DNA from: an uncultured delta proteobacterium | GTDB taxonomy: Bacteria > Desulfobacterota > Desulfuromonadia > Geobacterales > DSM-12255 | Direction of reading: 5' to 3' | Assembly: GCA_963787125.1 (NCBI GenBank) | Contig: CAWBBV010000002.1 | Location: 64,001-128,000 of the forward strand | Length of the DNA: 64,000 nt | Shown here: one piece after another, positions 5,066 through 26,534 of the stretch | Layout of the letters: each line of letters starts with the position of its first letter | Position numbering within the stretch: position 1 is the first letter of the stretch | Made by a program: the position numbers and the translations under genes | Notes under the pieces: generated by a model | The model's input: only the letters and a program-made list of their open reading frames with translations | Databases searched by the model: none | Told to the model about the DNA's origin: nothing

Positions 5066-8000
5066 TTACCCCTTTCTCGCGATCCCGACCATGAATGCCT
5101 TGGTTTCGGGAATCATCGTGTTGGCATCACCCGCAGTCGGGGTCAGCAGATTAGCGGAGTCGCCCACACCGGGGGTGTGCCAGCCAAAGCACCAGGGAAG
5201 ACCGATTTGATGGACAATCCGGTCGCCGATTTTGAACGGTTTTATCCGCGGAGTGACCATGGCAACGGCATCGATCTTGCCGCGGGCCGAGGAGACCTCA
5301 ATTATATCACCATTATTGATATTTTTCTCCTTGGCCAGTTCGACACTGAGCTCGCAGAACTGCCGCGGCTGCAACTCCAAAAGCCAAGGGGTGTTACGGG
5401 TCATGACCCCGGTCTGCCAGTGTTCTGTGACCCGGTAGGTGGTGGCCACAAGCGGAAAGCGCACATCACAGGAAGCAAGCACATCTTCTTTGATGTTGGC
5501 ATCGCTGAACACTTTGCTGGCCGGATTGGTCATCTGCTTGGAGAAGAAGTTTTCCGGCACTGGACACTCCACCGGCTCGTAATGCTCGGGGAAAGGTCCG
5601 TCTTTCAGGCCCGGGCCAAAAATGGCGGCAACGCCGTCAGCCCGCATGATGAAAGGTTTTCTCCCTTCTTTTTCGTCCGCCATCGGCGGCCAGGGGCCAT
5701 CCGGTACATCACCGACCCAGGCCCCCAGGGCTCCGGTCGGCAGGACAGCAGTCGGATTCCAGTAGACGACTGCTTTTTTAAGATTGTACGGCTTACCGGT
5801 CGGATCGCAGGAAGCGCGGTTGTAAATGATGCGGCGGTTGACCGGCCAGCACCAGGTCCACTCCGGGAACATCCCCAGGCCGGTCGGGTCCTTTTTGACC
5901 CGGCGGGCCATCATATTCCCCTTTTCGTTATAGCTCTGACTATAAATCCACGAACCGCAGGAGGTGGTGCCATCGGCCTGCAGCTGGGCAAAGCCGCCGG
6001 TCAGTTCACCTTTCTTGCCAAGCATCTTTTTCGGTGCCCAGGCTGGCGGTGGCGGCGGCGCTTTTTCGCCCGGTTTGAGCGGTTTCGGCTTCTCCTCCAC
6101 ATCTTCGAGGAAATAACCGTTGATCTCTTTGGCGACCGCATGGGTGTCAATGCTCTTGATGGTGCCGTCAGCCCTTTTGAAGCCGTAGTTCCAGGTAAGA
6201 TTCGTCAGCTGTTCCGGCAGTGCGCCCCCCTCCTTGGCGTAAAGCGCTTTAACTTTCTGGAACAGTTCATGAATAATTTCCGCGTCCGGCTTGCTCTGCC
6301 CCAGCGGCTTGACTGCGGCAGTGCGCCACTGGGCCCAGCGACCGGAGTTGGTGACGGATCCCTCTTTTTCAAAAGAGGCTGCGGCCGGGAGAAAGAACAC
6401 TTCGGTTTTTATCTTGGCGGAATCCACCCCCGGTCCTTTCCAGAAGGAAGCGGTTTCGTTGTCAAACAGGTTGGTTGTCACCATCCAGTCCAGTTTGGCA
6501 AGTGCCCCTCGCACCTTGTTGGAGTTGGAACCGGAACAGGCCGGATTCTGGCCCCAGGCAAAAAAGCCCTTGAACTTCCCTTTGATCATATTGTCAAAGA
6601 TCATCAGCCACGAACCGTTCATCCCCGGATCAAGCTTGGGCAGCCAGGCGTAACCGAAATCGTTCTCCTTGGTGGCTTTTGCCCCGTAAATAGCCTTCAG
6701 ATAGCTGATCAGGTACTTGTTGCGATTTCCCCACCAGTTGGCGCTCTGGGGATCTTTTGACTTGGGAGTATGCTTCTCAATGTAGGCCGCCGTATCCTTC
6801 AGCTCGGCCGACGGTACCGGCATGTAACCGGGGAGGATATGGAACAAAAGGCCGTGATCAGTGGATCCCTGAACATTGGATTCGCCGCGCAGGGCGTTGA
6901 TACCACCGCCAGCTATCCCCATATTGCCGAGGAGCAGCTGGATAATACACATGGCCCGGATGTTCTGGGTCCCGACCGTGTGCTGAGTCCACCCCATGGC
7001 ATACAGTTCGGTGCCGGCCTTGTCCGGTTTACCGGTTGATGCGTACAGTTTGTAAACCTCCAGCAGTTTTTCCTTCGGTGTGCCGGTAGTTTTTGAAACC
7101 AGTTCCGGGGTGTAACGGCTGTAATGCTTTTTCAGCAGTTGAAAGACACAATTTGGATCCTTCAGGGTCGGATCTTTCATGACGCTGTCATCGGCGTTTT
7201 TCTGAAAGGACCAGGATTTGACGTCATAACTCCGTTTTTTGGGATCGTAGCCGGAAAAGAGCCCGGCCAGTTCCCCCGGCAGCTTGAAATCGCCACTGAC
7301 CAGATAGGCCGAGTTGGTGTAGTCGCGCACGTACTGCTCGAAATGGAGATTGTTCTGGAGGATGTAGTTAATCATGCCGCCAAGAAAGGCTATGTCCGTG
7401 CCTGAACGCAATGGTGCGTACAGGTCGGCCTTGGCGGCGCTGCGAGTAAAACGGGGATCGACACAGATTACTTTTGCCCCGGCATCTTTGGCTTTCAGAA
7501 TCCAGCGAAAGGAAACCGGGTGGTTTTCAGCGGGGTTCGCCCCCATGATGAGGATTACATCGGAATTCTTGAAATCTATCCAGTGGTTCGTCATTGCACC
7601 GCGTCCGAACGACTCTGCCAGAGCCGCAACTGTTGCGCTGTGTCAAATGCGGGCCTGATGTTCAATATACACCAGGCCTAACCCCCTTAAGAATTTCTGG
7701 TACAGATAACACTCTTCATTATCCAGGGCGGCGCTACCGACCGAGGCCATCCCCATGGTGCGGTTGACCACAGCTTCGATCTCCTTCTCGACCTCAACAG
7801 TGCCGACCTTTTCCTTGATCTTGATCTTGCTGGTAGCCAGAAACGTGGTATCACGGGCCGTCTTGACCTTTTTGGCAATCTCGTCCAGCGCCCAGTCCCA
7901 GGTAACCTCCTGCCAGTCGCTGGCACCGGCGGGACGGTACATCGGCTTCGTAACACGGGCCTTGTTGTCGCGCAGTTGGTAGACGGAGGAGCCTTTCGGG

Positions 8001-8245
8001 CAGAGCGAACCCTCGTTGATCGGATGGTCCGGGTCGCCCTCGACGTTGATGATATTGCCACCCTGGGTGTGGACGATCATGCCGCAGCCGACCGAGCAGT
8101 AAGGGCAGATGGTGGTGCTCTCCTTGGCGTGCTGGATGGCAAGGCCTTCCGCCTTGGCCTCCAGCGGGGCAAGACTGAGGCCGAAGGTGGATACCGCTAT
8201 CCCCGCTCCTGAAAACTTCAAAAAATCTCTTCTTGATACTCCCAT
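5066..8245 (-). CDS. fdnG: Formate dehydrogenase alpha subunit, selenoprotein (in-frame UGA at 7643-7645)
   Basis: ORFs 7643..8251 and 5066..7594 join in frame through TGA: EHQARI-U-HSATVAALAESFGRGAMTNHW. Tat signal SRRDFLK and CPYCSVGC Fe-S motif. Confidence 0.96.
7609..7627 (-). promoter_or_regulatory. SECIS hairpin of fdnG
   Basis: Minus-strand GCGGCTCT-GGC-AGAGTCGT stem-loop starting 15 nt 3' of the UGA. Confidence 0.75.
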
Positions 8246-8679
8246 AGGCATTCCTCCAGGGTGTTTTTATGTGTTACAACGGATGGCGCAGCGCTAAAAT
8301 GATGGTGTCGCTTTACAAATAAACCAATGTGTCATATCTATACAGGAGTGGCCTGGCAGGCAAGCCCAACTAATATCTGGCCAATTCATTGATATTCAAG
8401 ATAAAAGCGTTCGGCAGCAGAATACATAGAAACGCTTAACCCAGATAACTTACAATATGTATGCCGCTGTCAAAGTATAATAGAACAAATGTTTAATCAG
8501 CATAACCGGGCGAAATCCCTGGTTTTTTCATTAACAAAAAGCCGCTGGCCGTCTTGTAAGACCGGTTTTGGGTAGATATTTCCGACAATGTATCTTTTTG
8601 ATACATTCTGAGACAGAAGCGGCGGCCACCGCTGGCCGCTTGCGGTAGGCAGTTCGAAACGGTAATTGCTGGAGAAACT

Positions 8680-12186: not shown

Positions 12187-12284
12187 GGAAGCACTTCGGT
12201 CTCTGGTGGGCCGCCCGGTCTTCAAAACCGGTGGGGGGGATGAGAAATCTCCCCGGTGGGTTCGATTCCCATGTGCTTCCGCCA
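12187..12284 (+). tRNA. selC: tRNA-Sec (anticodon UCA)
   Basis: GGAAGCAC/GTGCTTCC 8-bp acceptor stem, CT-TCA-AA anticodon loop, long variable arm, GTTCGATTC T-loop, 3' GCCA. Confidence 0.95.
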
Positions 12285-12347: not shown

Positions 12348-12755
12348 ATGCCTGAAGACATTCGCTGGAAACAACGCTTTGACAACTACAGCCGCGCACT
12401 TCATCAATTGACCCTTGCAGTGCAACTGATGCACCAACGGCCGCTATCAAATCTTGAACTGCAGGGATTGATTCAGGGGTTTGAGTTTACCCATGAACTT
12501 GCCTGGAATGTCCTGAAAGATTATCTGGAGTTTGAGGGGATTCAAGGATTGATAGGCTCAAGAAGCACGGTGCGTGAGGCATTCAAGAGGGGTCTGGTTA
12601 TGGATGGCGAAGCCTGGATGGATATGATTGAAAAACGAAACCTCTCCAGTCATACCTATAACCAGGACGTTGCTGAAACTCTGGTGGCAGCTATCGACGA
12701 AAGTTATTATCCTGCATTCATGGCACTCCAGGAGCGTTTTGAGAAAGAGATTTAG
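12348..12755 (+). CDS. HEPN / nucleotidyltransferase substrate-binding protein (HI0074 family), putative toxin
   Basis: GLIQGFEFTHELAW and RNLSSH (Rx4H) motifs. Confidence 0.85.
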   Translation: MPEDIRWKQRFDNYSRALHQLTLAVQLMHQRPLSNLELQGLIQGFEFTHELAWNVLKDYLEFEGIQGLIGSRSTVREAFKRGLVMDGEAWMDMIEKRNLSSHTYNQDVAETLVAAIDESYYPAFMALQERFEKEI

Positions 12756-12757
12756 TC

Positions 12758-13072
12758 ATGCCTGAATTCGGTCTTCCTGATAAAACCATAACTACCATTC
12801 GGAAGATATTTGTTGAGTTCCCCGCGGTGGAAAAAGCTATCCTGTACGGTTCGCGTGCTAAAGGGAATTATAAGCATGGTTCTGACATTGACCTGACCCT
12901 TGTTGGGGATATGCTTGACAGCAACACTCTGGGCAAGGTTGCAGACAGGCTCGATGAATCGTCGATTCCCTATCAGGTTGATCTCTCGATTTTCGAACAA
13001 CTCAGGCACGCCGGACTGCGGGAACATATCGAAAGGGTCGGAGTGGTGTTTTATGAGCGGCAAGGCACTTAG
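12758..13072 (+). CDS. Minimal nucleotidyltransferase (MNT), putative antitoxin
   Basis: LYGSRAKG..SDIDL motif; directly follows the HEPN gene. Confidence 0.88.
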   Translation: MPEFGLPDKTITTIRKIFVEFPAVEKAILYGSRAKGNYKHGSDIDLTLVGDMLDSNTLGKVADRLDESSIPYQVDLSIFEQLRHAGLREHIERVGVVFYERQGT

Positions 13073-13104
13073 TTCTCTGGTGGGCTAGATTCCCATGTGC
13101 GCCA
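13063..13104 (+). pseudogene. Internally deleted remnant copy of tRNA-Sec
   Basis: 13063-13085 matches selC 12189-12211 at 20/23 positions; 13088-13100 is identical to selC 12264-12276 and is followed by GCCA. Confidence 0.7.
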
Positions 13105-13119
13105 TTCACGCAAATCCTG

Positions 13120-15504
13120 CTACACCCCAACCTGCTGCTGATACAGATATTTCTGAAACCCCGCAAACACCCTGCCGATTTCAGCAGCTTTCCCAAGATC
13201 GGCCTCGGCATCTCTCAACGAGTCATGATATTTGAGTTTGAGCAGCGGCGATAGTTTCGCCATGTCCAGCTCATCCACGCCTACCTCCACATAATGGGCC
13301 AGCACGAAGTCAAGAAAGGTCTGCTGTTTGCTGGTGAAGTGCTGGGTGATGAGCGTTCGTGCCTTTGCTGCCCGCTCTTCACGGGTGAGGGTTGGCAGGG
13401 CATAGGCGACATGGGCCAGCACGTCGAAGAGGTCGCTCTTCTCCGCATCAACGATCTTCTGCATTTCGCCAAGTTGCTCTTTGCCGAAACCCTTCTCTCC
13501 AAGCCCCGCCAGCAGCTTCCGGCGGGTATCAGGCCGACTCCATAAGGTACGCAGTTCGTCTTCGTTCTTGAAGAACTCGGGGAGCTTGCCGAACAGCATT
13601 TCCATGAACTGCTGGGCTGTTACCGGTATGCCACCAGGATGCCAGTAGCTGGACACGATCGTATGCTTAATGTTGCGTTCCTTACCATCGGCAAGCTGCA
13701 CCTTGACCTTGACCCGCCGGATACATTCACACGGCAATTGGCCGCAAAACGTGCAGGGTTCCGGCTCCGGCCTCTCACAGACACACGGACGCTGGCCGCA
13801 GGCCTTGCAGAGCGGCTTGACACATTCGCAAGGGAAACCGCCGCATATCTCGCATGCCTCCGGCTCAAGCGGTTCGCCATCCCATTCCGGGTCGCGGAAA
13901 TGTTCGTGCGCCTTCACAAAGTCGTAGATCGTGAAGTAGTCCTTGCCATCGAAGAGCCGGGTGCCGCGGCCGATGATCTGCTTGAACTCGATGATTTGCC
14001 TGATCGGGCGCATCAGCACGATGTTGCGGATATTACGGGCATCGACACCGGTTGACAGCTTTTGCGAGGTGGTGAGAATGGTCGGAATGGTCTTCTCGTT
14101 GTCCTGAAAGTCGCGCAGGAACTGATTGCCGATCTCCCCTTCGTCGGCAGTGACCCGCACACAATAATTCGGTTCCGTGCTGCTTTTCATCCGGTTGATT
14201 AAATCACGCACTACCAAGGCATGAGCCTGATTCGCACAGAACACCAGCGTCTTTTCCCGCTGATCAATCTGGTTCATGAAGATTTCAACGCGCTTCTTCT
14301 CCCGCTCGTAAATGACGATTTTCCGGTTAAAGTCCGCCTCTTCGTAAACCCTGCCCGCCTCTATCTCCCCCTCGACGACCATATCATCAGGGGTGTAGAC
14401 GTATTCATCCAGCGTGGTGGTGATCTGTTTGATCTTGAATGGGGTAAGAAAACCGTCGTTGATTCCTTCTTTCAGTGAGTAGACATAGACCGGTTCGCCG
14501 AAATAGTCGTAGGTATCCACGTTGTCGTCACGCTTGGGGGTGGCTGTCAAGCCAAGCTGCACGGCGGGTTTGAAGTATTCCATGATCTCGCGCCAACTGC
14601 TCTCATCATTGGCTCCGCCGCGGTGGCATTCGTCGATGATAATACAATCGAAGAAGTCTTTCGGGTAGTCACCGAAATAAGGGGTCTCGCCCAGGCCGCT
14701 CATAAAGGTCTGAAAGATGGTGAAAAAGACGCTGCCGTTGGTCGGCACTCTCCCCTTCTTGCGGATGGAGTCGGGATCGATGCGCACCAGCGCGTCTTCC
14801 TTGAAGGCGGCGAAGGAGGAAAAATCGTTGTAGGCCTGATCGGCCAGATTAACCCGGTCGGCCAGGAAGAGGATACGCGGCAGCCGTGACGTTTCACGGC
14901 TCAGACTCCAGCGGGACTGGAACAGTTTCCAGGCGATCTGGAAGGCGATTGAGGTCTTGCCGGTGCCGGTAGCCAGGGTCAGGAGGATGCGGTCGTTTCC
15001 CTCGGCAATCCGCTCCAGCACCCGCTCCATGGCGATCTGCTGATAAAAGCGGATCTGCCAGCTGCCGCTCTTGTCGGCAACCGGCACAGCGGCGAAGCGG
15101 TCGCGCCAGCCGTTCGCGGCGCTAAAGGTCAGGTCCCAGAGTTCGGCAGGGGTGGGATAGCGGGCAACATCCCCTTCTATCCCGGTTGCCATGTCGATGC
15201 CGTAAATCTTCTGGCCGTTGGTGGCGTAGGTGTAGCGCACGGCCAGCTTCCCGGCGTAGATCTTCGCCTGGGCCGCCCCTTCGGTGTAGGGCCGGCCCCA
15301 TGCCTTGGCCTCGATCACCGCCAGCTTGTGGTTGCGGTAGATCAGCACGTAATCGGCCACCTGCGGCTCGCCGCGCACCCCCTTGCCCAGGATGCGGCCG
15401 GGGGTGATTACCTCCCGGCGGATGCGGCTCCCTTCAACCACTCCCCAGCCGGCAGCTTTCAGGGCGGGGTCGATATGTTCGGCTCTGGTTTCGGCTTCGT
15501 TCAT
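13120..15504 (-). CDS. hsdR: Type I restriction endonuclease R subunit (EcoAI/EcoEI-like)
   Basis: ADY..IEAK nuclease motif, ATGTGKT, IDECHRG, GLTATP, QIIGRGTR. Confidence 0.93.
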   Translation of the reverse strand: MNEAETRAEHIDPALKAAGWGVVEGSRIRREVITPGRILGKGVRGEPQVADYVLIYRNHKLAVIEAKAWGRPYTEGAAQAKIYAGKLAVRYTYATNGQKIYGIDMATGIEGDVARYPTPAELWDLTFSAANGWRDRFAAVPVADKSGSWQIRFYQQIAMERVLERIAEGNDRILLTLATGTGKTSIAFQIAWKLFQSRWSLSRETSRLPRILFLADRVNLADQAYNDFSSFAAFKEDALVRIDPDSIRKKGRVPTNGSVFFTIFQTFMSGLGETPYFGDYPKDFFDCIIIDECHRGGANDESSWREIMEYFKPAVQLGLTATPKRDDNVDTYDYFGEPVYVYSLKEGINDGFLTPFKIKQITTTLDEYVYTPDDMVVEGEIEAGRVYEEADFNRKIVIYEREKKRVEIFMNQIDQREKTLVFCANQAHALVVRDLINRMKSSTEPNYCVRVTADEGEIGNQFLRDFQDNEKTIPTILTTSQKLSTGVDARNIRNIVLMRPIRQIIEFKQIIGRGTRLFDGKDYFTIYDFVKAHEHFRDPEWDGEPLEPEACEICGGFPCECVKPLCKACGQRPCVCERPEPEPCTFCGQLPCECIRRVKVKVQLADGKERNIKHTIVSSYWHPGGIPVTAQQFMEMLFGKLPEFFKNEDELRTLWSRPDTRRKLLAGLGEKGFGKEQLGEMQKIVDAEKSDLFDVLAHVAYALPTLTREERAAKARTLITQHFTSKQQTFLDFVLAHYVEVGVDELDMAKLSPLLKLKYHDSLRDAEADLGKAAEIGRVFAGFQKYLYQQQVGV

Positions 15505-15514
15505 GGGCGGCTTC

Positions 15515-16645
15515 CTAGAGTTGACCGGTGAAGGCTTGGTCGAGGAGTGATTTTTTCAGGGCGTCGAGGGCGGCAAGTTTCTGCTGGTAGATGGATTCGA
15601 GGTCATCTGTTTGTTCTCGAAGAGAATCCATCGTCGTAACAATCCTCTCCTGACTTGCAAGGCTCGGTAGTGCAATCTCCATGTCCTTGATCATTCCAAG
15701 TTTTAGAAACTTCGTCCCTGCACCAACTGACTGTTCTTTGAATTTCTTTAGGCTCTTCAACATCTGGAAATACAAAAATCGATATAACACACGCTTTTGT
15801 TCATTCACCGTGATCACATAAGTGCGCTGGTAAGCATTAAATTTCCCTTTGTAGTGCTTCACATTGAAGTCACCTACTGCATTGTTGCCTGCCAAGAGAA
15901 TCGCTTCAAAGTCAAAAGCAAAATTATCGATAGCGTAAATTTCTCTTGAGCAAGTGAAAAAGGGATACTGTCCATCTTCAACTGCCGCATTAGCATCTAA
16001 TTTACCCGTGGTTATCTTAACCAAATCTCCAAGCGGAACCTTATCCGCATCTATGTTGTTCAGGTGGCTTTCAAAGATAGCACGGGCACTCCTGAGGTTC
16101 TTTTCGGCGTTGGCTTTGGCGGTGGTGATACCGTCAAATGCTTTGTCGAGGATGGTGACAATGCGCTGCTGTTCGGTTGGCGTGGGGAAATGAACTTGAA
16201 GCTCTTTTAGCTTTGCCTTGTTCAGCGTCATTCCCTTCAGCTTCACATCGTTTTCAGCAGCCTTTTTCCAATCAAAAAAGTGTAGGAAGTAGAAAAGGAA
16301 TTCCTTTGAAAGCTCTTTCTCATTGAAAATGGTGAGTGCCACAATCGCCTCATTCGTGAACAGGTCGCGACCTGCAAAAGCTAATCGTCCAAGCGTGAGC
16401 TTGAAACTCGCAAGCAGTGTACCTTTGCGAACGTTCTTAGAAATGGCTGCGCCTTTGTCCGAGAGGTATTCTTTACTATCAACGACAACATTGTCCTCGG
16501 CATTTAGAAGGTCAGCGATTGATAACCAGACGTTGTCAGTTTCACGCTTCTCATCCCAAAACGCCTTATGTGCTCTCGCTGGTGTTTTACCCAGTTCGAT
16601 CTTGCACAAATCTCCAAGCTTCTTTTTCTGCCACCCTACCTTCAT
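15515..16645 (-). CDS. hsdS: Type I R-M specificity subunit
   Basis: Two TRDs joined by PTPTEQQRIV and PSLASQERIV coiled coils; ends LLDQAFTGQL. Confidence 0.92.
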   Translation of the reverse strand: MKVGWQKKKLGDLCKIELGKTPARAHKAFWDEKRETDNVWLSIADLLNAEDNVVVDSKEYLSDKGAAISKNVRKGTLLASFKLTLGRLAFAGRDLFTNEAIVALTIFNEKELSKEFLFYFLHFFDWKKAAENDVKLKGMTLNKAKLKELQVHFPTPTEQQRIVTILDKAFDGITTAKANAEKNLRSARAIFESHLNNIDADKVPLGDLVKITTGKLDANAAVEDGQYPFFTCSREIYAIDNFAFDFEAILLAGNNAVGDFNVKHYKGKFNAYQRTYVITVNEQKRVLYRFLYFQMLKSLKKFKEQSVGAGTKFLKLGMIKDMEIALPSLASQERIVTTMDSLREQTDDLESIYQQKLAALDALKKSLLDQAFTGQL

Positions 16646-18099
16646 AGCAACGCCCTGATATTCGCCAGCACTGCCGCACTCTCGGCATCCAGCGCCGCAA
16701 TCTCATCCATGATCACCTGCGGGCTGCGATGGACAATCTCTTCACCGCCATCGGGGTTCTTCACCGAAAGATCATACCCTTCGGCTCCGCTCAGGGCGCT
16801 GATATCCACGCTCCAGCTCTTGGGCGAATCGGCAAAGGTACGCTGCAGTTGGATGAACTCCTGCAGATCGTCATCATTGAGCGGGTTGGTCTTCCCCATG
16901 TTGCGGCCAACGTCGAGCGAGTAGTACCAGACTGTGCGGGTCTTGGTTCCCTTCTCGAAGAACAGCACTACGGTCTTCACTCCCGCCCCCTGGAAGGTGC
17001 CGCCGGGACAGTCGAGCACCGTGTGCAGGTTGCAGCTTTCCAGCAGCAGCTTGCGCAGACTCACTGAGGCGTTGTCGGTATTGGAGAGAAAGGTGTTCTT
17101 GATGACCACTCCTGCCTTGCCGCCTGCTCTAAGCATCTTGATGAAGTGCTGCAGGAAGAGGAAGGCGGTTTCGCCAGTGCGGATCGGGAAGTTCTGCTGC
17201 ACCTCCTTGCGCTCTTTGCCGCCGAAGGGAGGGTTGGCCAGGATCACGTCGTAGCGGTCTTTCTCCTGAATGCCGGCAAGGTTCTCGGCCAGGGTGTTGG
17301 TGTGGATGATGTTGGGCGCTTCGATGCCATGGAGGATCATGTTCATGATGGCGATGACATAGGCGAGCGACTTCTTTTCCTTGCCGTAGAAGGTGGACTC
17401 CTGCAACAGCTTCATGTCGTCGGTGGTGAGGCCGGGCCGGGCCTTGAGGTAGTCGAAAGCTTCGCACAAAAAGCCTGCCGAACCGACCGCGCCGTCATAG
17501 ATCCGTTTGCCAACCTCCGGATTCACCACCTGCACAATGGCGCGGATCAGGGGGCGCGGGGTGTAATACTCGCCGCCGTTCCTGCCGGCGTTCCCCATGT
17601 TCTTGATCTTGGCTTCGTAGAGGTGGGACAGCTCGTGCTTCTCGGTCTGGGAGCGGAAGCGCAGCTCGTCGATATGGTCGATGATGTCGCGGAGGATATA
17701 GCCGCTGTGGATCTTGTTCTTGATCTCGCCGAATATCTGGCCGATCTTGTATTCGATGGTATTCGGCCCGCTGGCCTTCTGCTTGAAGCCGTGCAGGTAG
17801 GGGAACAGCTTAGCGTCAACGAAGCTCCGCAGGTCGTCGCCAGCCAGAGCCTTGCTGTGGTCGAGCTTGCCGTCGGCGGTCTTGGGTGCTGCCCAGCTTT
17901 CCCAGCGGTATTGTTCATCAAGGATGAAGGAGTACGCCTTTCCCTCCAGTTCCGCCTCCATGGCCTTGTCTTGCTCCAGCCCGTCCAGATATTTCAGAAA
18001 CAGCAGCCAGGAAGTCTGCTCTGCATAGTCCAGTTCACTGGCACAACCAGCTTCTTTCCGGAGTGCGTCGTCGATATTCTTGAAGGCCTGTTCAAACAT
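16642..18099 (-). CDS. hsdM: Type I R-M N6-adenine methyltransferase
   Basis: GEYYTPR, DGAVGSAGFL and ANPPFGG motifs. Confidence 0.94.
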   Translation of the reverse strand: MFEQAFKNIDDALRKEAGCASELDYAEQTSWLLFLKYLDGLEQDKAMEAELEGKAYSFILDEQYRWESWAAPKTADGKLDHSKALAGDDLRSFVDAKLFPYLHGFKQKASGPNTIEYKIGQIFGEIKNKIHSGYILRDIIDHIDELRFRSQTEKHELSHLYEAKIKNMGNAGRNGGEYYTPRPLIRAIVQVVNPEVGKRIYDGAVGSAGFLCEAFDYLKARPGLTTDDMKLLQESTFYGKEKKSLAYVIAIMNMILHGIEAPNIIHTNTLAENLAGIQEKDRYDVILANPPFGGKERKEVQQNFPIRTGETAFLFLQHFIKMLRAGGKAGVVIKNTFLSNTDNASVSLRKLLLESCNLHTVLDCPGGTFQGAGVKTVVLFFEKGTKTRTVWYYSLDVGRNMGKTNPLNDDDLQEFIQLQRTFADSPKSWSVDISALSGAEGYDLSVKNPDGGEEIVHRSPQVIMDEIAALDAESAAVLANIRALL

Positions 18100-19522: not shown

Positions 19523-21439
19523 ATGAAAAATCTCATTCTCGGCACTGCCGGCCACATAGATCACGGCAAGACGTCACTCGTCAAGACACTGACCGGCGTC
19601 GACACCGATCGTCTCCCCGAGGAGAAATCCCGCGGCATTACCATCGAGCTCGGCTTTGCTGACCTGGAACTCCCCGGCGGGATTCATTTCGGGATTGTCG
19701 ATGTGCCGGGGCACGAGCGCTTTCTGCGCACCATGGTTTCCGGTGTCGTGGGGATGGACCTGGTGATGCTGGTGATTGCCGCCGATGAAGGGGTGATGCC
19801 CCAGACCCGTGAGCATCTTGATGTCTGCCAGTTGCTCGGCTTGAAAAAAGGGCTGGTGGTGCTGACCAAGAGCGACCTGGTGGAGCCTGACTGGCTGGAG
19901 CTGGTCGTGGAGGAGGTGCGGGAGTTTCTGACAGGAAGTTTTTTGGAAGGGGCTGCTGTCATCCCGGTCTCCTCCCGCAGCGGCGTCGGCTTTGACCAGT
20001 TGAAAGTCGAACTGGGGCGAATAGCTCTGGGGCTGGAGCAGAAGCGGAGCGAAGGCCATTTTCGCCTGCCGGTGGACCGGGTGTTTACCCTACCCGGCTT
20101 CGGGACGGTGGTAACCGGCACGCTTTTATCCGGCAAGGTCGCGGTGGGGGACGAGGCGGAGATTCTCCCGGCAGCCCTCCCCTGCAGGATTCGCGGCATC
20201 CAGACCCATGGCGCCAGGATGGAAGCGGGAGAAGCGGGCTCAAGACTGGCTCTGAATCTCCAGGGGGTTGACCATTACCAGGTGAAGCGCGGCGATGTGG
20301 TTGTCCCCAAGGGGATCTACCGGACGACGCGGCGGGTAGATGTTCAGCTGGAACATCTGCCATCAGCAGCGCACAACCTGAAACATCGCACTACCCTGCG
20401 GCTCCACGCGGCGACCTACGAGGTTTCAGCCCAGGTAATTCTTTTTGACAGGGAGTTCCTGGAACCGGGCGAAAGCGCCTTTGCCCAGCTGCGATTATCC
20501 CGACCGGTCCTGCTCCTTAATGGCGACCCGTTCGTGCTCCGCTCGTCATCACCCTCGGCTACCGTTGCCGGCGGCACGGTGCTTGACCCCTCCCCCCCCG
20601 GTCGCCGCCGCCGCTCCCTGGAGGCAGTGGCACTGCTGGAATACCTGGCGAGCGGCGCTGATCCTGAGGCTATCGCCGGAATGATTACGGAGAGCCTGCT
20701 CTCGGGGATAACCCATACCGATATCGCTGCCAGAAGCGGGATTCCGGCCAGACGTCTCGAAGCAGCCCTGGCGCAGCTGCTGGCGAGCGGCGCAGTAGTC
20801 CAGGTAGTGCGTGAACCAAAAAGATATCTCAGCCGCCAGGCATTCGCCTCCCTTTGCAGCCTGCTGTTAGCCGAGATGAACAGCTATTTTGCCAGTAATC
20901 CGCTTAAAGAGGGGATCGGCAAAGAGGAGTTAAAGACCAGGCTGCCGGCAAGAAGTGACCAGCGTTTTTTCACCCCCTGCCTTGCCGCCCTGGAAAAGGA
21001 TGGGAAAGTCATGGCCGAGCGTGAGCAGGTGAAACTGGTCGGACGCAAGGCAGGAGCGGAGACTGCCCAGGCGGATATCCACCGACTGATCGAGCTTGAG
21101 TTGGAAATGGGGGGGAGCGAGCCACCGTTTCTCAAGGATATCTGCAGCACGCTCCGAATAACGGAAAAACTGGTGGTTGAACACTTGAGCCTGCTGGTGA
21201 GAGAAGGGCTGGCTGTAAAGGTGAAGAGTGACGTCTTCTACCGCCCGGAGCCGCTTGCCCGTATTGAGGAAAAACTGATCGCTCATCTGCGGGAAAAGGG
21301 TGAAGTCACCCCGACCGAATTCCGGGAGATGACCGGCCTGTCACGCAAGTTCATGATTCCGCTCCTGGAGTATTTCGATGCGCAGAAGTTGACCTTAAGA
21401 GTCGGGGACAGGCGGCTGTTGCGGAAGAAACTAGGCTGA
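19523..21439 (+). CDS. selB: Selenocysteine-specific elongation factor
   Basis: [28 protein letters not shown], and C-terminal winged helix [13 protein letters not shown]. Confidence 0.96.
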
Positions 21440-21504: not shown

Positions 21505-22323
21505 ATGAGCGCGATCAGACTTTTCGAATCAAAGAAAATCCGTTCAGCATGGGATGCACTTGAAGAGAAGTGGTATTTTTCAATTGTAGATGTTGTCGGG
21601 GCGCTGACAGATAGCCCGGACCCCAAGGATTACTGGTATCGGATCAAGAAACGCGAGAAGGTTTCGGGACTTGAGTTATCGACAATTTGTCGACAACTGA
21701 AACTGGAGTCCGCCGATGGCAAAAAATACCTGACCGACTGCGCCAATACCGAAGGGCTGTTGCGTATCATCCAGGCGATTCCTTCACCAAAAGCCGAACC
21801 GTTCAAACTCTGGCTGGCAAAGGTCGGTTATCAGCGGCTGGAAGAGATCGAAAACCCCGAACTGGCCATGGGGCGGATGCAGGAGCTGTACGAAAAGAAA
21901 GGGTATCCCAAGGAGTGGATTGACAAGCGATTACGAGGGATTGCCGTTCGCCAGGACCTGACTGACGAGTGGAAAAACCGCGGCGCGGGTAACAATCTGG
22001 CATACGCCATTCTGACCAACGAGATCATGCAGGGTGCTTTTGATCTGAAGGTTGATGACTATAAAGCGGTCAAGGGGCTGAAGCGGGAAAACTTGCGTGA
22101 TCACATGACCGACATGGAACTGATCCTGACAATGCTGGCAGAAGCGACCACCACCAAGTTGCACCGTGACCGGGATTCGCAAGGTTTTGAACCATTGCAG
22201 AAGGATGCAAAGGACGGCGGCGCAGTTGCCGGCAGAACTCGCAAGGACATCGAGGCTCAGACGGGAAAACCGGTGATAACCAGTGACAACTTCAAGAAGT
22301 TGACCTCAAGCAGGCTCACATGA
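21505..22323 (+). CDS. Bro-N domain (antirepressor-like) protein
   Basis: WYFSIVDVV, IPSPKAEPFKLWLA and NLRDHMT motifs; GGAGG RBS before 21505. Confidence 0.8.
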   Translation: MSAIRLFESKKIRSAWDALEEKWYFSIVDVVGALTDSPDPKDYWYRIKKREKVSGLELSTICRQLKLESADGKKYLTDCANTEGLLRIIQAIPSPKAEPFKLWLAKVGYQRLEEIENPELAMGRMQELYEKKGYPKEWIDKRLRGIAVRQDLTDEWKNRGAGNNLAYAILTNEIMQGAFDLKVDDYKAVKGLKRENLRDHMTDMELILTMLAEATTTKLHRDRDSQGFEPLQKDAKDGGAVAGRTRKDIEAQTGKPVITSDNFKKLTSSRLT

Positions 22324-22697
22324 AAACAGCGGCAACTATTGCAATTTTCTGCGCCGGAGGCGGTCTGACCCGCTACTATCTGTCCGGCTGGGTTTACAGC
22401 CTGCTGGGGCGGGCATTCCCCTACGGTACCTTTGTCGTCAACATCATTGGTGCCTATTTCATCGGCCTGATCATGGAGCTCGGCCTGCGCAGCACCGCCA
22501 TTTCCGACACCCTGCGACTCGGCCTGACAGTCGGCTTCATGGGGGGGTTGACAACTTTTTCCACCTTCAGTTATGAAACGTTCGCGCTTCTGGAGGATGG
22601 TCAGTTGCTGCCGGCATTTGTCAACATCCTCGCCAGTGTCCTGGTCTGTCTGATATTCACCTGGCTCGGGATTATCACGATTCGTTCAATGTCATAG
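22320..22697 (+). CDS. crcB: Fluoride channel CrcB/FluC
   Basis: RY, FPYGTFVVN and GFMGGLTTFSTFS motifs. Confidence 0.93.
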   Translation: MKTAATIAIFCAGGGLTRYYLSGWVYSLLGRAFPYGTFVVNIIGAYFIGLIMELGLRSTAISDTLRLGLTVGFMGGLTTFSTFSYETFALLEDGQLLPAFVNILASVLVCLIFTWLGIITIRSMS

Positions 22698-22708
22698 GAG
22701 GGAGCTTC

Positions 22709-23038
22709 ATGCCGAAACTTGTTGGCGAAAACCTTTTAATGAGGATCTATCTGGCCGAAAGCGACCGCTACGAACACAGGCCGCTGTATGAGGCGTTGGT
22801 GGAGATGCTGCGCACTGCCGGGTTTGCCGGTGCTACGGTGCTCAGGGGTGTGGGCGGTTTCGGCAGCCACCGGGTCTATCATTCGCAAAAGCTGCTCGAT
22901 CTTTCCGCCGACCTGCCGCTGATCATTGAGGCGGTGGAAAGCCAGGAGATGATCAATGCTATCATGCCACGCCTGGACGAGATGATGACCGGTGGCACGG
23001 TCACGCTGGAAAAGGTTAGCGTGATCCGCTACAGTTAG
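22709..23038 (+). CDS. DUF190 (PII-like) protein
   Basis: AGATVLRGVGGFG and LSADLPLIIE motifs; usual crcB partner. Confidence 0.85.
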   Translation: MPKLVGENLLMRIYLAESDRYEHRPLYEALVEMLRTAGFAGATVLRGVGGFGSHRVYHSQKLLDLSADLPLIIEAVESQEMINAIMPRLDEMMTGGTVTLEKVSVIRYS

Positions 23039-23173: not shown

Positions 23174-23467
23174 TCACGAACAGCAGTTGCCCCCGGCTAT
23201 CTTGCCTAGCTTATGTTCCTGCAGCCACTCATTAATCATGCCGCTGGCGCAGCCGACCCCTGAATCAACCTTGATTGCCTTGACCGGACAGTTGAGCGCA
23301 CAGGCGCCACACTCCATGCAGGCATCACGATCAAGCAGCCGCGCCCTGTTATCCCGAAGGGCAAAAACCTGGTGAGGACAGACCTCCAGGCAACGACCGC
23401 AGCCGACGCAGGCCGGTTGGTCAAGTTCAAGAGTAGCTACGTTCTGCAGATATCTGAAGCCTTGCAT
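23174..23467 (-). CDS. hgcB: Mercury methylation ferredoxin HgcB
   Basis: Two CxxCxxCxxxCP motifs including CMECGAC, SGVGCA, and C-terminal CC; directly after hgcA. Confidence 0.95.
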   Translation of the reverse strand: MQGFRYLQNVATLELDQPACVGCGRCLEVCPHQVFALRDNRARLLDRDACMECGACALNCPVKAIKVDSGVGCASGMINEWLQEHKLGKIAGGNCCS

Positions 23468-23477
23468 AACTCCCCCT

Positions 23478-24665
23478 TCAAATAAATTTCCCTGCCAGCA
23501 GCAGCATGATTCCCAGAATAATCGCTCCTGCCATAATCGGCAGGCTGAGGCGCATCTCCTTTTTTACCCCGGAACGGGATGTATAGGGGGTGCAGCCGGT
23601 GAAGTTGAGAGTGTAAAAAGCGCTGACCGCAGGTAAGGCAATAAAAGCGGCGACGGTGATAATGCTGCTCCAGTCAATACTGCTGACAATAGAACGGCAG
23701 GCAGCAACCCAGAGGATGCCAACCAGCCACCCCTTGACAGCAAAACTTGACCCCGGCAGCCATGGCAGAAGCAGCGGCCCGAGGATAATTCCGCTCAGCA
23801 CGGCCCCGGCGTATACCAGCATAGCAACAATTCCGGCATTCATTCCACCGGCCAGAGCAAAGAAGAGCAGGATGATCCCTCCGGCAACAAGCAGAGATTT
23901 CATCGCCAGAACGAGCTCCACCGGCAGAAGAACCAACCGCTCGTAAAAAGTGAAGGTCAGATGCTGCATCTCCGGCGTGCTAACCATGCCGTTATCGAGA
24001 TAAGCTGGGATATCAGCCGCCTGCACCGCCCCAAAGCTGACCGTAAAGCCGGAGCGTTTGGCCACCTGGTGCGCCGCTACCCCCGGGGCACCGAGAAGCG
24101 GCAGAATAAGGCGCCTGTGGGTGACAACCTGAGACAGACCGGTTGCCGCAATGCGGCGGACCAGTTCACCGGTGCCAAAAGTCCCTTTGCCGGCAGCACA
24201 CCAGACGTTGATGCCGTAGGTTTCAAGCACCAGCAGCCAGACGTTCCGCCCCGCAAGGGAGCGGCGCACAGCGTCGTAGCTCATCTTGTAGTTGGCCGTC
24301 ACCAGCACCGGAGCGTCCGGCATCGGGGTGCCGACCGCATAGAGCCCCGGCGGGACCATGTAGGTCATCCGGCCAAGACCCCAGCGCGCCTTCCAGGCTC
24401 CCAGCCGGTCACTCCAATCATAAGCTGAAGAAATCCTGGCAACACGGCCGGCCGGTGTCTCCAGCCAGCTCATGAAACCCGGTACTTGCTCGGTTATCTC
24501 TCCACCGCCGGCGGAGGTAGGGGGGCCTCAGCAGGGAGGTTTATCACTGCCGTTGCCAGCCTCAATTGAACAGACTGCAGCAGGCAAAACGCTCGTGGCC
24601 GCTGTGGCTTTTCTACTGTTTTTGATCTTGAAGGCAACGCCGGGCTCTTTATTTACTTGCAACAT
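23478..24665 (-). CDS. hgcA: Mercury methylation corrinoid protein HgcA, with probable Sec-containing N-terminal extension (UGA at 24528-24530)
   Basis: Cap-helix NVWCAAGKG, VTANYKMS, C-terminal TM domain with NFTGCTPYTS. The frame extends upstream of the ORF-track start (24473) through one TGA to ATG 24665. Gene identity is secure; the extended start is an inference. Confidence 0.9.
24500..24516 (-). promoter_or_regulatory. Putative SECIS hairpin of hgcA
   Basis: Minus-strand CTCCGCC-GGC-GGTGGAG stem-loop starting 11 nt after the in-frame TGA. Confidence 0.65.
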
Positions 24666-25123
24666 GCAATCGTTCCCCCCTGAGATATCGTTTCCTGTCG
24701 CTCCTGGATAAGGACGCCATTGAGCAACTCCAGAGACCTGACCACGGTATCGCGCTCAAACGGGCTCAGCTGTCCGAAAATCCTCACAAGCCGCGCTGAC
24801 ATGTAGGTGTCAATCTTGCCGACGGTTTCCAGACCGGCAGCTGTGAGGCCCAGCAGCGTCACCCGGCGGTCATCCTGTGACACCCGCCTGGAGACAAGCC
24901 CCTTAATCTCCAGCGTTTTGACCTGGCGACTGAAGGTGGTGATATCCATACCCAACTCTTCGGCAACCTGCTGCATTGACGGGCTCCCCGTCCGGCGGAT
25001 CTCCATGAGAATATGGCTCTGGACCATGGAAATCTGTTCGCCGCAGCAGTCGTCGCAGCAGGCCGCGTTCAATAATCCGAAGCGGCGGGTAAAAATCTGC
25101 AGCTGTTCCCTGACTGTTTTCAT
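24653..25123 (-). CDS. MarR-family regulator with CCxxCC and C-terminal CC
   Basis: wHTH signature (QSHILMEI, VAEELGMD, LEIKGLV, DRRVTLLGLT); overlaps the extended hgcA start. Confidence 0.88.
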   Translation of the reverse strand: MKTVREQLQIFTRRFGLLNAACCDDCCGEQISMVQSHILMEIRRTGSPSMQQVAEELGMDITTFSRQVKTLEIKGLVSRRVSQDDRRVTLLGLTAAGLETVGKIDTYMSARLVRIFGQLSPFERDTVVRSLELLNGVLIQERQETISQGGTIACCK

Positions 25124-25155
25124 TGAAGGCACTCCTGCAGATAAAACTAGCTTTA

Positions 25156-25176
25156 TTATTTGCAAAATGCAACTAA
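25156..25176. promoter_or_regulatory. Putative MarR operator
   Basis: Inverted repeat TTATTTGCA-AAA-TGCAACTAA (8/9 match) just upstream of the marR-hgcAB start. Confidence 0.55.
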
Positions 25177-25277: not shown

Positions 25278-26534
25278 TCAGCTGCAGACCTGATTCCTTC
25301 CTTTGCTTTTAGCCCTGTAAAGCGCCTTGTCAGCAGCCTTCATGATTTCAGCGGCCCCGCCCTGGCCTTCCCCTGACTCCGCCACGCCAATACTTATGGT
25401 CACGGAAACCTCTGTGGAGCTGCTCTTGCTGCCGCGTTTGCCTTCGCCCTGCTTTGGGTCTTTGGGCCGGTCATCACTGCGGATTGAGAGGCGATATGCT
25501 TCGATACTCTTTCTGACCCCTTCCAGATGCGGAATCACCTCAGCAGCCTTTTTACCGGGGAAAAGCACCGTAAACTCTTCACCGCCATAACGGTACGCCT
25601 TCCCCCCGCCGCTGACTGAGTCGATCCTCTTTGCCACCATCTTCAAAACCTGATCACCCACATCATGACCATAGGTGTCATTGAACCGTTTGAAATGATC
25701 CACATCCAGCATGGCAACCGCGTAGCGCCTGCCAAGACCGTGAAGACTTTCATTCAACGCCCGCCGCGACGGAATGCCGGTCAGATCATCCCTGAACGCC
25801 ATATTATAGGAGTCCTGGAGGATGCTGAGAGTGATGATGATCCCGGCAGCAGTGCAGAAAAGCGCCGGCAGGTCCGGAGAAGTTATCTTTGCCAGACTGA
25901 TGACAATTGCCAGGAGCGCCCCGAGCAGGCCGCTTTCAATGGGAGCCTGACGCTTTATTGCCAGAAAAACGATAAATGACATGGAGACCAGCGCCAGTGC
26001 TAGCAGCGGTTGCGGCAGGAGCAGAGTGTCGAAAAGCGGCTGGGAGGAAAATTGGCGGGTCAAGAGCGGCTGGACATCTTCAAAGTGATGCCTGAAAAGG
26101 AGCCAGACAATCGCCGCCTGCATAACAATAAAACCGAAGCGGAGTCTTCCGGCTATGGAGAAGACCCCCCTCTCACGCATCAGCGCCAGAAGAGCAAAGT
26201 TCAAGGGCAAAAGCAGTGCAAGGCCAAGATACACACCTTGTTGAACATAACCGCTGACGCCTGTTTCCAGGTAAGAACGGTAGAAATAGTAGAAAATGCT
26301 GATCAGGAAAAGTGCTGTGAACGGACGACCACGATGGAAATGAACCGACAGAAACATCCCGGCAACGGCAGCAAGATAAGGTGAGATCAGGAGCAGCTCT
26401 TTGTGGGCCGGAGCGAGAGTCGCAATTTTGGGTAAAAGGAAAACTGCGGCAGCAAGTAGTGCCAATGGTACCAGGAAAATAAGAGTTTTTTTGGCTGTGG
26501 CTGTACTCACTAAGCTTTTGCGCCTCTCAATCAC
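25278..26534 (-). CDS. Membrane-bound diguanylate cyclase
   Basis: Multiple TM helices, DVDHFKRFNDTYGHDVGD, RYGGEEF, ADKALY. Confidence 0.92.
   Translation of the reverse strand: MIERRKSLVSTATAKKTLIFLVPLALLAAAVFLLPKIATLAPAHKELLLISPYLAAVAGMFLSVHFHRGRPFTALFLISIFYYFYRSYLETGVSGYVQQGVYLGLALLLPLNFALLALMRERGVFSIAGRLRFGFIVMQAAIVWLLFRHHFEDVQPLLTRQFSSQPLFDTLLLPQPLLALALVSMSFIVFLAIKRQAPIESGLLGALLAIVISLAKITSPDLPALFCTAAGIIITLSILQDSYNMAFRDDLTGIPSRRALNESLHGLGRRYAVAMLDVDHFKRFNDTYGHDVGDQVLKMVAKRIDSVSGGGKAYRYGGEEFTVLFPGKKAAEVIPHLEGVRKSIEAYRLSIRSDDRPKDPKQGEGKRGSKSSSTEVSVTISIGVAESGEGQGGAAEIMKAADKALYRAKSKGRNQVCS

Follow-up and report, generated by a model that had tools for sequence, protein, structure and literature searches.

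We analyzed a 64,000-nucleotide stretch of DNA from an uncultured delta proteobacterium (hereafter the window), and focused on a gene pair on its minus strand whose first member is called under translation table 11 as a plain open reading frame at 23478-24473, ending at the stop TGA 23480-23478. In an NCBIfam profile search, this frame matches NF040863 (HgcA_corrinoid) with 446 bits against a cut-off of 275, over profile positions 1-324 of 325, and a Pfam CdhD match falls on it as well; a profile search of the organism's own genome returns this as the single NF040863 locus. The translation carries the cap-helix motif GINVWCAAGK—an instance of the family pattern N(V/I)WCA(A/G)GK with its cobalt-ligating Cys—in columns that are invariant across our alignment of HgcA homologues, and an AlphaFold2 model shows five long helices (residues 240-273, 275-302, 308-326, 334-357 and 364-394) making up the C-terminal membrane domain. 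The second member of the pair is the hgcB ferredoxin gene (23174-23467, minus strand; NF040864, 134 bits vs. a cut-off of 99), which starts 11 nt past the hgcA stop and whose product has Cys rather than Sec at residue 73 and ends in ...NCCS. Together, these results strongly support the identification of the gene as hgcA. The pair is flanked on one side by a plus-strand region (22320-23038) with a CrcB fluoride exporter gene (22320-22697) and an adjoining 109-residue open reading frame without an NCBIfam match, and on the other side by a gene for a membrane GGDEF diguanylate cyclase (25278-26534, minus strand).

Upstream of the called start at 24473, the hgcA frame continues. Read from ATG 24665-24663, it is open all the way to the stop TGA 23480-23478 with a single internal TGA at 24530-24528, so that with TGA translated as Sec (U) the full-length hgcA spans 23478-24665 on the minus strand, with 395 codons plus the stop and Sec at codon 46. 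The resulting N-terminal extension of 64 codons (24474-24665, minus strand), which is missed if the UGA is taken as a stop, contains Cys32, Cys45 and Sec46, and the predicted Sec (UGA at 24528-24530, minus strand) lies in the motif PCUGP, with the peptide across it reading ...SDKPPC-U-GPPTSAGGGEITEQVPGFMSW.... An earlier note on this DNA had claimed that the frame stays open for 64 more codons with one TGA, and our translation returns exactly the peptide given there. The same note had pointed to a Shine-Dalgarno-like sequence before ATG 24665 and none before ATG 24473, and this too is what we find: AGGGGGGA lies at 24674-24681 on the minus strand (24681-24674 in reading direction), 9 nt before ATG 24665 when counted from its last G, and no purine-rich Shine-Dalgarno sequence precedes ATG 24473 in the sequence read.

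Between the previous in-frame stop and the UGA, the only in-frame start codons are ATG 24665, TTG 24662 and one TTG located 19 codons before the Sec. Most relatives start at an MKI[KR]E[IV]R sequence about 34 codons before the Sec; in the window and a subclade of relatives the usual Met is a Phe (FKIK), and a start of the form M[LS]Q[VL] lies 11-12 codons further upstream. Since FKIKxxRK is conserved as protein, 24665 or 24662 is the likely start. ATG 24665 overlaps the last codons of an upstream MarR gene (stop 24655-24653), an arrangement that suggests translational coupling, and because this overlap involves the conserved ...ACCK end of the upstream product, the MLQV residues of HgcA are partly dictated by the MarR gene. 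Consensus-match scans, which carry little weight, gave neither a promoter-like site on the minus strand between the MarR gene and hgcA nor a terminator-like site on that strand upstream of the UGA; the lone minus-strand terminator-like match in such a scan (23851-23833) lies within the hgcA coding region.

The upstream gene itself (24653-25165, minus strand) encodes a MarR-family regulator (Pfam MarR, E = 7e-13) whose true start is likely Met15 at 25123, and whose product carries a CCDDCC motif as well as the C-terminal ACCK. MarR homologues are located upstream of hgcA in 53 of the 110 loci compared below (the best 30 of one sample and the best 80 of 248 in another), and they conserve both an N-terminal CC[DE]xCC and a C-terminal [IV]ACC[KN]; a regulator of this kind could serve to sense thiophilic metals. 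In Geobacter daltonii, a MarR gene has been noted to precede hgcA (PMC10349881), and we found no mention of its Cys motifs in the parts of that article available to us.

Taken by itself, the open upstream frame was rejected as evidence, as it falls within chance expectation: based on local base composition, the probability of 45 open codons is approximately 0.21, and of the window's 30 stop-to-stop frames longer than 300 codons, 5 abut a TGA upstream of which 45 or more further codons stay open and include an ATG. Folding of the single sequence was likewise rejected as evidence for a SECIS element. The minimum free energy fold does contain the hairpin after the UGA that the earlier note had described, a SECIS-like structure at 24500-24516 on the minus strand with a 7-bp stem (24516-24510 paired with 24506-24500) and a GGC triloop (24509-24507), which begins about 12-14 nt after the UGA with 11 unpaired bases between. 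Judged from the one sequence, its stability does not exceed that of shuffled sequences, with a z-score of -0.26 for 45 nt (82 of 200 shuffles fold as well) and -0.03 for 71 nt. Because neither the open frame alone nor the single-sequence fold goes beyond chance, the case rests on the comparison of homologues.

For this comparison, we searched NF040863 in the organism's own genome and 60 relatives, which gave a match in 49 of the 61 genomes (over the cut-off in 48), and read through the best 30 loci, own locus included. Counting exactly 107 codons back from the N[VI]WCAAGK cap helix leads to TGA in 27 of these and to TGC in 3, in the context P-C-[U/C]-G-P. A second sample, drawn from named genomes, consisted of the best 80 of 248 stretches encoding a relative, and included metagenome-assembled genomes labelled Syntrophus, Nitrospirae and Desulfobacterium in addition to Geobacteraceae. 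Here 65 loci have CU (63 as PCUGP, one as SCUGP and one as TCUGP), 14 have CC (13 as PCCGP and one with a one-residue shift), and one locus is cut by a contig end. Merging and de-duplicating both samples reduced 107 of the 110 loci to 94 distinct segments, in which the codon 107 before the NVWCAAGK cap helix is TGA in 77 and TGC or TGT in 16, with one segment in a shifted register. As a control of the method, one of our loci (L017) matches letter for letter the extension printed for a founding HgcA in the preprint of Haft & Gwadz (bioRxiv 10.1101/2022.07.06.499078; J Bacteriol 2023;205:e00259-22).

The aligned homologues also bear the mark of protein-level constraint on both sides of the codon. 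Averaged over columns, identity at the first, second and third codon positions is 0.67, 0.68 and 0.51 upstream of the UGA and 0.90, 0.87 and 0.58 downstream of it, variation in the Pro-Pro-Cys codons is almost confined to third positions, and the elements [MF]KIKxIRK, DKPPC and VPGF are kept across the UGA. A further Cys lies 8-20 residues upstream of the Sec in 64 of 78 Sec forms. An in-frame UGA with conserved residues on both sides and Cys homologues aligned at the same position is the pattern expected of a selenoprotein gene, and the alignment strongly supports the view that the UGA sits in a conserved coding context where it alternates with Cys. Conservation of C-(U/C)-G upstream in homologues was the check that the earlier note had proposed for its own claim, and the 77 TGA and 16 TGC or TGT codons among the 94 distinct segments bear it out.

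The hairpin, too, gains its meaning from the homologues. Across the 27 TGA relatives of the first sample, 95.2% of cells are paired in the 7-pair helix, compared with 39-79% when the partner strand is slid by 1-3 columns, and RNAalifold recovers the same 7-pair helix. Compensatory changes occur in two of the seven pairs (C-G to U-A and U-A to C-G), a thin covariation among genomes that are kin. A clearer signal comes from the contrast between codon types: among the 77 TGA genes, all 7 pairs can form in 60, 6 pairs in 16 and 5 pairs in one, and the loop is GGN in 73, whereas the 16 Cys genes retain 2-6 pairs and none has all 7. It is this TGA-vs.-Cys comparison alone that is informative for the SECIS element, here a stem-loop with a G-containing apical loop shortly past the UGA, and it strongly supports the conclusion that the SECIS-like hairpin tracks TGA. 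A scan of the window at Rfam gathering thresholds reported no SECIS family, even at the UGA of the fdhA gene discussed below, and is therefore uninformative.

The Cys-type genes themselves (L009, L012, L024, L038, L049, L059, L061, L086, L095-L097, L099-L101, L104 and L109) share with the window HgcA the position of the codon, in a PCCGP motif at the same distance to the cap helix (16 of the 94 segments), and differ from it in having a Cys codon, a degraded hairpin and extra upstream Cys residues. Where Sec forms have a single upstream Cys, Cys-type genes have CC or several CC and the SECIS stem has decayed, with an extra upstream CC dipeptide present in 15 of 17 Cys forms vs. 0 of 78 Sec forms. 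Several Cys-type loci occur amid close Sec-type relatives, which suggests repeated switches from Sec to Cys. We also considered whether a Cys-type HgcA marks genomes free of Sec machinery, and rejected this idea, as selB scores over the cut-off in all three confirmed Cys-type relatives checked (G017, G019 and G032); the presence of Cys forms in genomes that bear selB implies that Sec is not obligatory. Two further relatives with long open hgcA frames (G025 and G026, their codon at the UGA position not inspected) are without selB over the cut-off.

The organism encodes what is needed to decode the UGA. In agreement with the earlier note, which had placed selB and selC within about 12 kb, both lie in the window within approximately 12.3 kb of the hgcA UGA: selB at 19523-21439 on the plus strand (TIGR00475, 365 bits vs. 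a cut-off of 242), and selC, the tRNA-Sec gene with anticodon TCA, at 12187-12284 on the plus strand (Rfam RF01852, 78.8 bits; also called by ARAGORN). Other parts of the genome carry selA (589 bits) and selD (G000:C7:238403-239323; 360 bits), the latter with one in-frame TGA, so that selenophosphate synthetase SelD is probably itself a selenoprotein. All of selA, selB, selC and selD are thus encoded, and selB is also found over the cut-off in each of the five TGA-type relatives checked.

The window holds a second selenoprotein gene that was split by the ORF caller, fdhA, in whose family Sec is the catalytic Mo ligand. Its N-terminal piece of 202 codons lies in the region 7598-8251 on the minus strand (TIGR01553 match at 7643-8251, profile positions 2-194) and ends at TGA 7645-7643. 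Like hgcA, fdhA contains a UGA in frame, with a stem downstream of it that is capped by the same GGC triloop, and would be decoded by the same selB and selC; unlike hgcA, with its 7-bp stem 14 nt after the UGA, it has an 8-bp stem 18 nt after the UGA. The likeness of the two hairpins fits a single SelB recognising both. Between the tRNA-Sec gene and selB, we additionally observed inserted-looking genes (12348-18099), namely an HI0074-family nucleotidyltransferase substrate-binding subunit (12348-12755) and a type I restriction-modification system consisting of an EcoAI-type HsdR (13120-15504), a specificity subunit (15515-16645) and a methylase (16642-18099), which may represent an island beside the tRNA-Sec gene.

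Based on these comparisons, we put the probability at roughly 85% that the product of this hgcA is a 395-residue selenoprotein whose hidden N-terminal Cys-Sec extension begins at ATG 24665. This was the central claim of the earlier note, and it now draws on approximately 94 distinct homologues, a SECIS-like hairpin and a complete Sec machinery. In the mechanism that we propose, translation would start at ATG 24665 or the adjoining TTG 24662, overlapping the stop of the MarR-type regulator gene, and SelB with Sec-tRNA(Sec) would read UGA 24530-24528 as Sec, directed by the 7-bp GGC-loop SECIS hairpin downstream, steps that strong comparative evidence supports. The predicted product would carry a Cys45-Sec46 pair in PCUGP and a third conserved Cys about 14 residues upstream.

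To place these residues in the protein, we examined the AlphaFold2 model, built from a 51-sequence alignment with a mean pLDDT of 79.6. The arm is modelled as disordered, with pLDDT below 50 at residues 1-39 and 45-50; order starts at the invariant VPGF and a beta-hairpin spanning residues 64-78, and from residue 61 onward pLDDT is about 94-95. In this model, which has low confidence for the arm, all three residues would sit on a flexible N-terminal arm, approximately 15 residues before the corrinoid-binding domain's first ordered beta-strand. A distance from the arm to the cap-helix Cys was rejected as unusable, given the pLDDT below 50 in the arm.

What such an arm would do is a separate matter, and here our proposal stands at even odds: its most likely role would be that of a soft-ligand arm taking up Hg(II), or CH3Hg+ as the product, and delivering it to the methyl-corrinoid site or accepting it from there, probably in concert with the C-terminal Cys-Cys of HgcB. 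The further Cys located 8-20 residues upstream would help Cys45-Sec46 to capture Hg(II) or CH3Hg+, and the extra CC dipeptides in the Cys forms support such ligand packing. The earlier note had likewise suggested that the vicinal Cys-Sec captures Hg(II) or methylmercury and ties methylation to selenium supply, a plausible role that none of the papers found reports. Two points speak against an essential catalytic role: Cys forms occur in genomes with selB (3 of 3 checked), and the CU arm would be inessential for catalysis if the extension was left out of the ND132 HgcAB construct discussed below. Flexible arms with Cys pairs are familiar from the mer system—the NmerA domain and C-terminal Cys pair of MerA, as well as MerP and MerT—where mobile paired soft ligands hand Hg(II) to a buried active site. 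The likeness to the HgcA arm is one of concept; the mer arms use thiols only and serve reduction or transport and not methylation.

We also weighed the possibility that Sec is inserted and that the Cys-Sec pair is a redox couple (selenenylsulfide/selenol-thiol) and not a Hg ligand, in which case it may aid the reductive activation of the corrinoid or shield low-potential centres. Sec-Cys pairs serve redox chemistry in many bacterial selenoproteins, and the corrinoid domain behind the arm needs reduction to Co(I), both of which count in favor of this account. It nevertheless appears unlikely to us, as the extra CC in 15 of 17 Cys forms and in none of the Sec forms looks more like ligand packing, and because adjacent CU is rare and, according to the Haft & Gwadz preprint in the portion available to us, otherwise occurs in metal-handling contexts. 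The examples given there (10.1101/2022.07.06.499078) are SaoL (MerB-like), SaoB and SaoC of the SAO system and some MerT-family proteins, which like HgcA have an adjacent Cys-Sec for which binding of mercury-like metals is proposed, and which differ from it in having unrelated folds and gene contexts.

Much less probable still is the reading in which the UGA is an ordinary stop that closes the 45-codon upstream frame, with HgcA translated independently from ATG 24473. The table 11 call yields exactly such a layout, upstream-open frames before a TGA are common in the window (the 5 of 30 given above), and the NF040863 profile begins at residue 75 of the long form and so scores the short form equally well. 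In addition, HgcAB of ND132, carrying an N-terminal His tag and made in E. coli, methylated Hg in lysates according to the text available of PMC11588087. Against these points, an ATG at the position of 24473 is present in only 4 of 78 distinct Sec-type genes, and in 70 of the 78 the 30 codons that follow the UGA contain no ATG; nor is there a Shine-Dalgarno sequence before 24473 in the window itself. Moreover, PCUGP is conserved as one motif, 16 of the 94 homologues read straight through it with Cys codons, and the hairpin persists solely in genes with a TGA at this codon. Finally, that the UGA is an assembly error, a pseudogene mark or a site of non-Sec readthrough has a negligible probability, as nothing specific favors it beyond the general possibility of an erroneous lone TGA in one draft genome, and it is effectively refuted by TGA at the same codon in 77 distinct sequences from many assemblies, with the present genome 99.96% complete and equipped with a full Sec system.

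The Cys-Sec extension of HgcA is already known, having been described in 2022-2023, and the window is one more clear example that adds supporting detail. The earlier note had mentioned that a similar CU extension was proposed for some HgcA proteins, and this is correct: in the preprint text available to us, Haft & Gwadz described the extension for the family, with 20 of 20 HgcA genes extended through one UGA and an invariant PCUGP, noted Cys-rich non-Sec forms of HgcA and remarked on their Cys packing, and stated that reference data had been added to NCBI's PGAP annotation pipeline (10.1101/2022.07.06.499078). A 2026 review (PMC13188914) lists HgcA in its accessible part with NF040863 and the motif CU, and the accessible part of a 2024 PNAS paper says that homologues "may be selenoproteins" and nothing more. 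Among the papers found on hgcA in connection with selenoproteins, none gives experimental proof of selenium in an HgcA.

Set against the form described in the preprint text, the window HgcA is alike in its N-terminal extension through one UGA, its PCUGP and the Sec machinery in its genome, and its 395 residues fall inside the reported range of 363-400. It has 45 residues before the Sec vs. 13 in the minimal extension of GSU1440, and its start overlaps the stop of the MarR gene; nothing essential differs. In the preprint's main text, the word "hairpin" occurs 0 times and SECIS is absent from the HgcA section, so that the TGA-vs.-Cys contrast in the hairpin, the start of the FKIK subclade, the MarR overlap, the extra CC and the counts reported here may be small additions to that main text.

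Returning to the selenoprotein reading, the lack of a conserved internal start past the UGA implies that production of HgcA should depend on selenium supply and on the Sec machinery. We tentatively propose, as a possibility that we hold to be rather less than even, that in this Geobacteraceae clade translation of HgcA is gated by selenium and coupled to a Cys-rich MarR regulator that may sense Hg(II) or another thiophilic metal, which would make methylmercury formation jointly dependent on both. If gating of this kind is real, selenium shortage or loss of SelB would leave only a 45-residue peptide and no methylase. Neither selenium gating nor the link to a MarR sensor was found stated in the literature examined.

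Among the forms of mercury, methylmercury is the one that builds up in food webs, and to our knowledge no enzyme system other than HgcAB produces it. Should the native enzyme carry its Cys-Sec pair on a mobile arm, three consequences would follow, all of them already raised in the preprint text of Haft & Gwadz (10.1101/2022.07.06.499078): studies of proteins cloned from the older, short gene models may have worked with a truncated enzyme, metagenomic hgcA calls would be systematically too short, and selenium availability could control mercury methylation in sediments and rice paddies.
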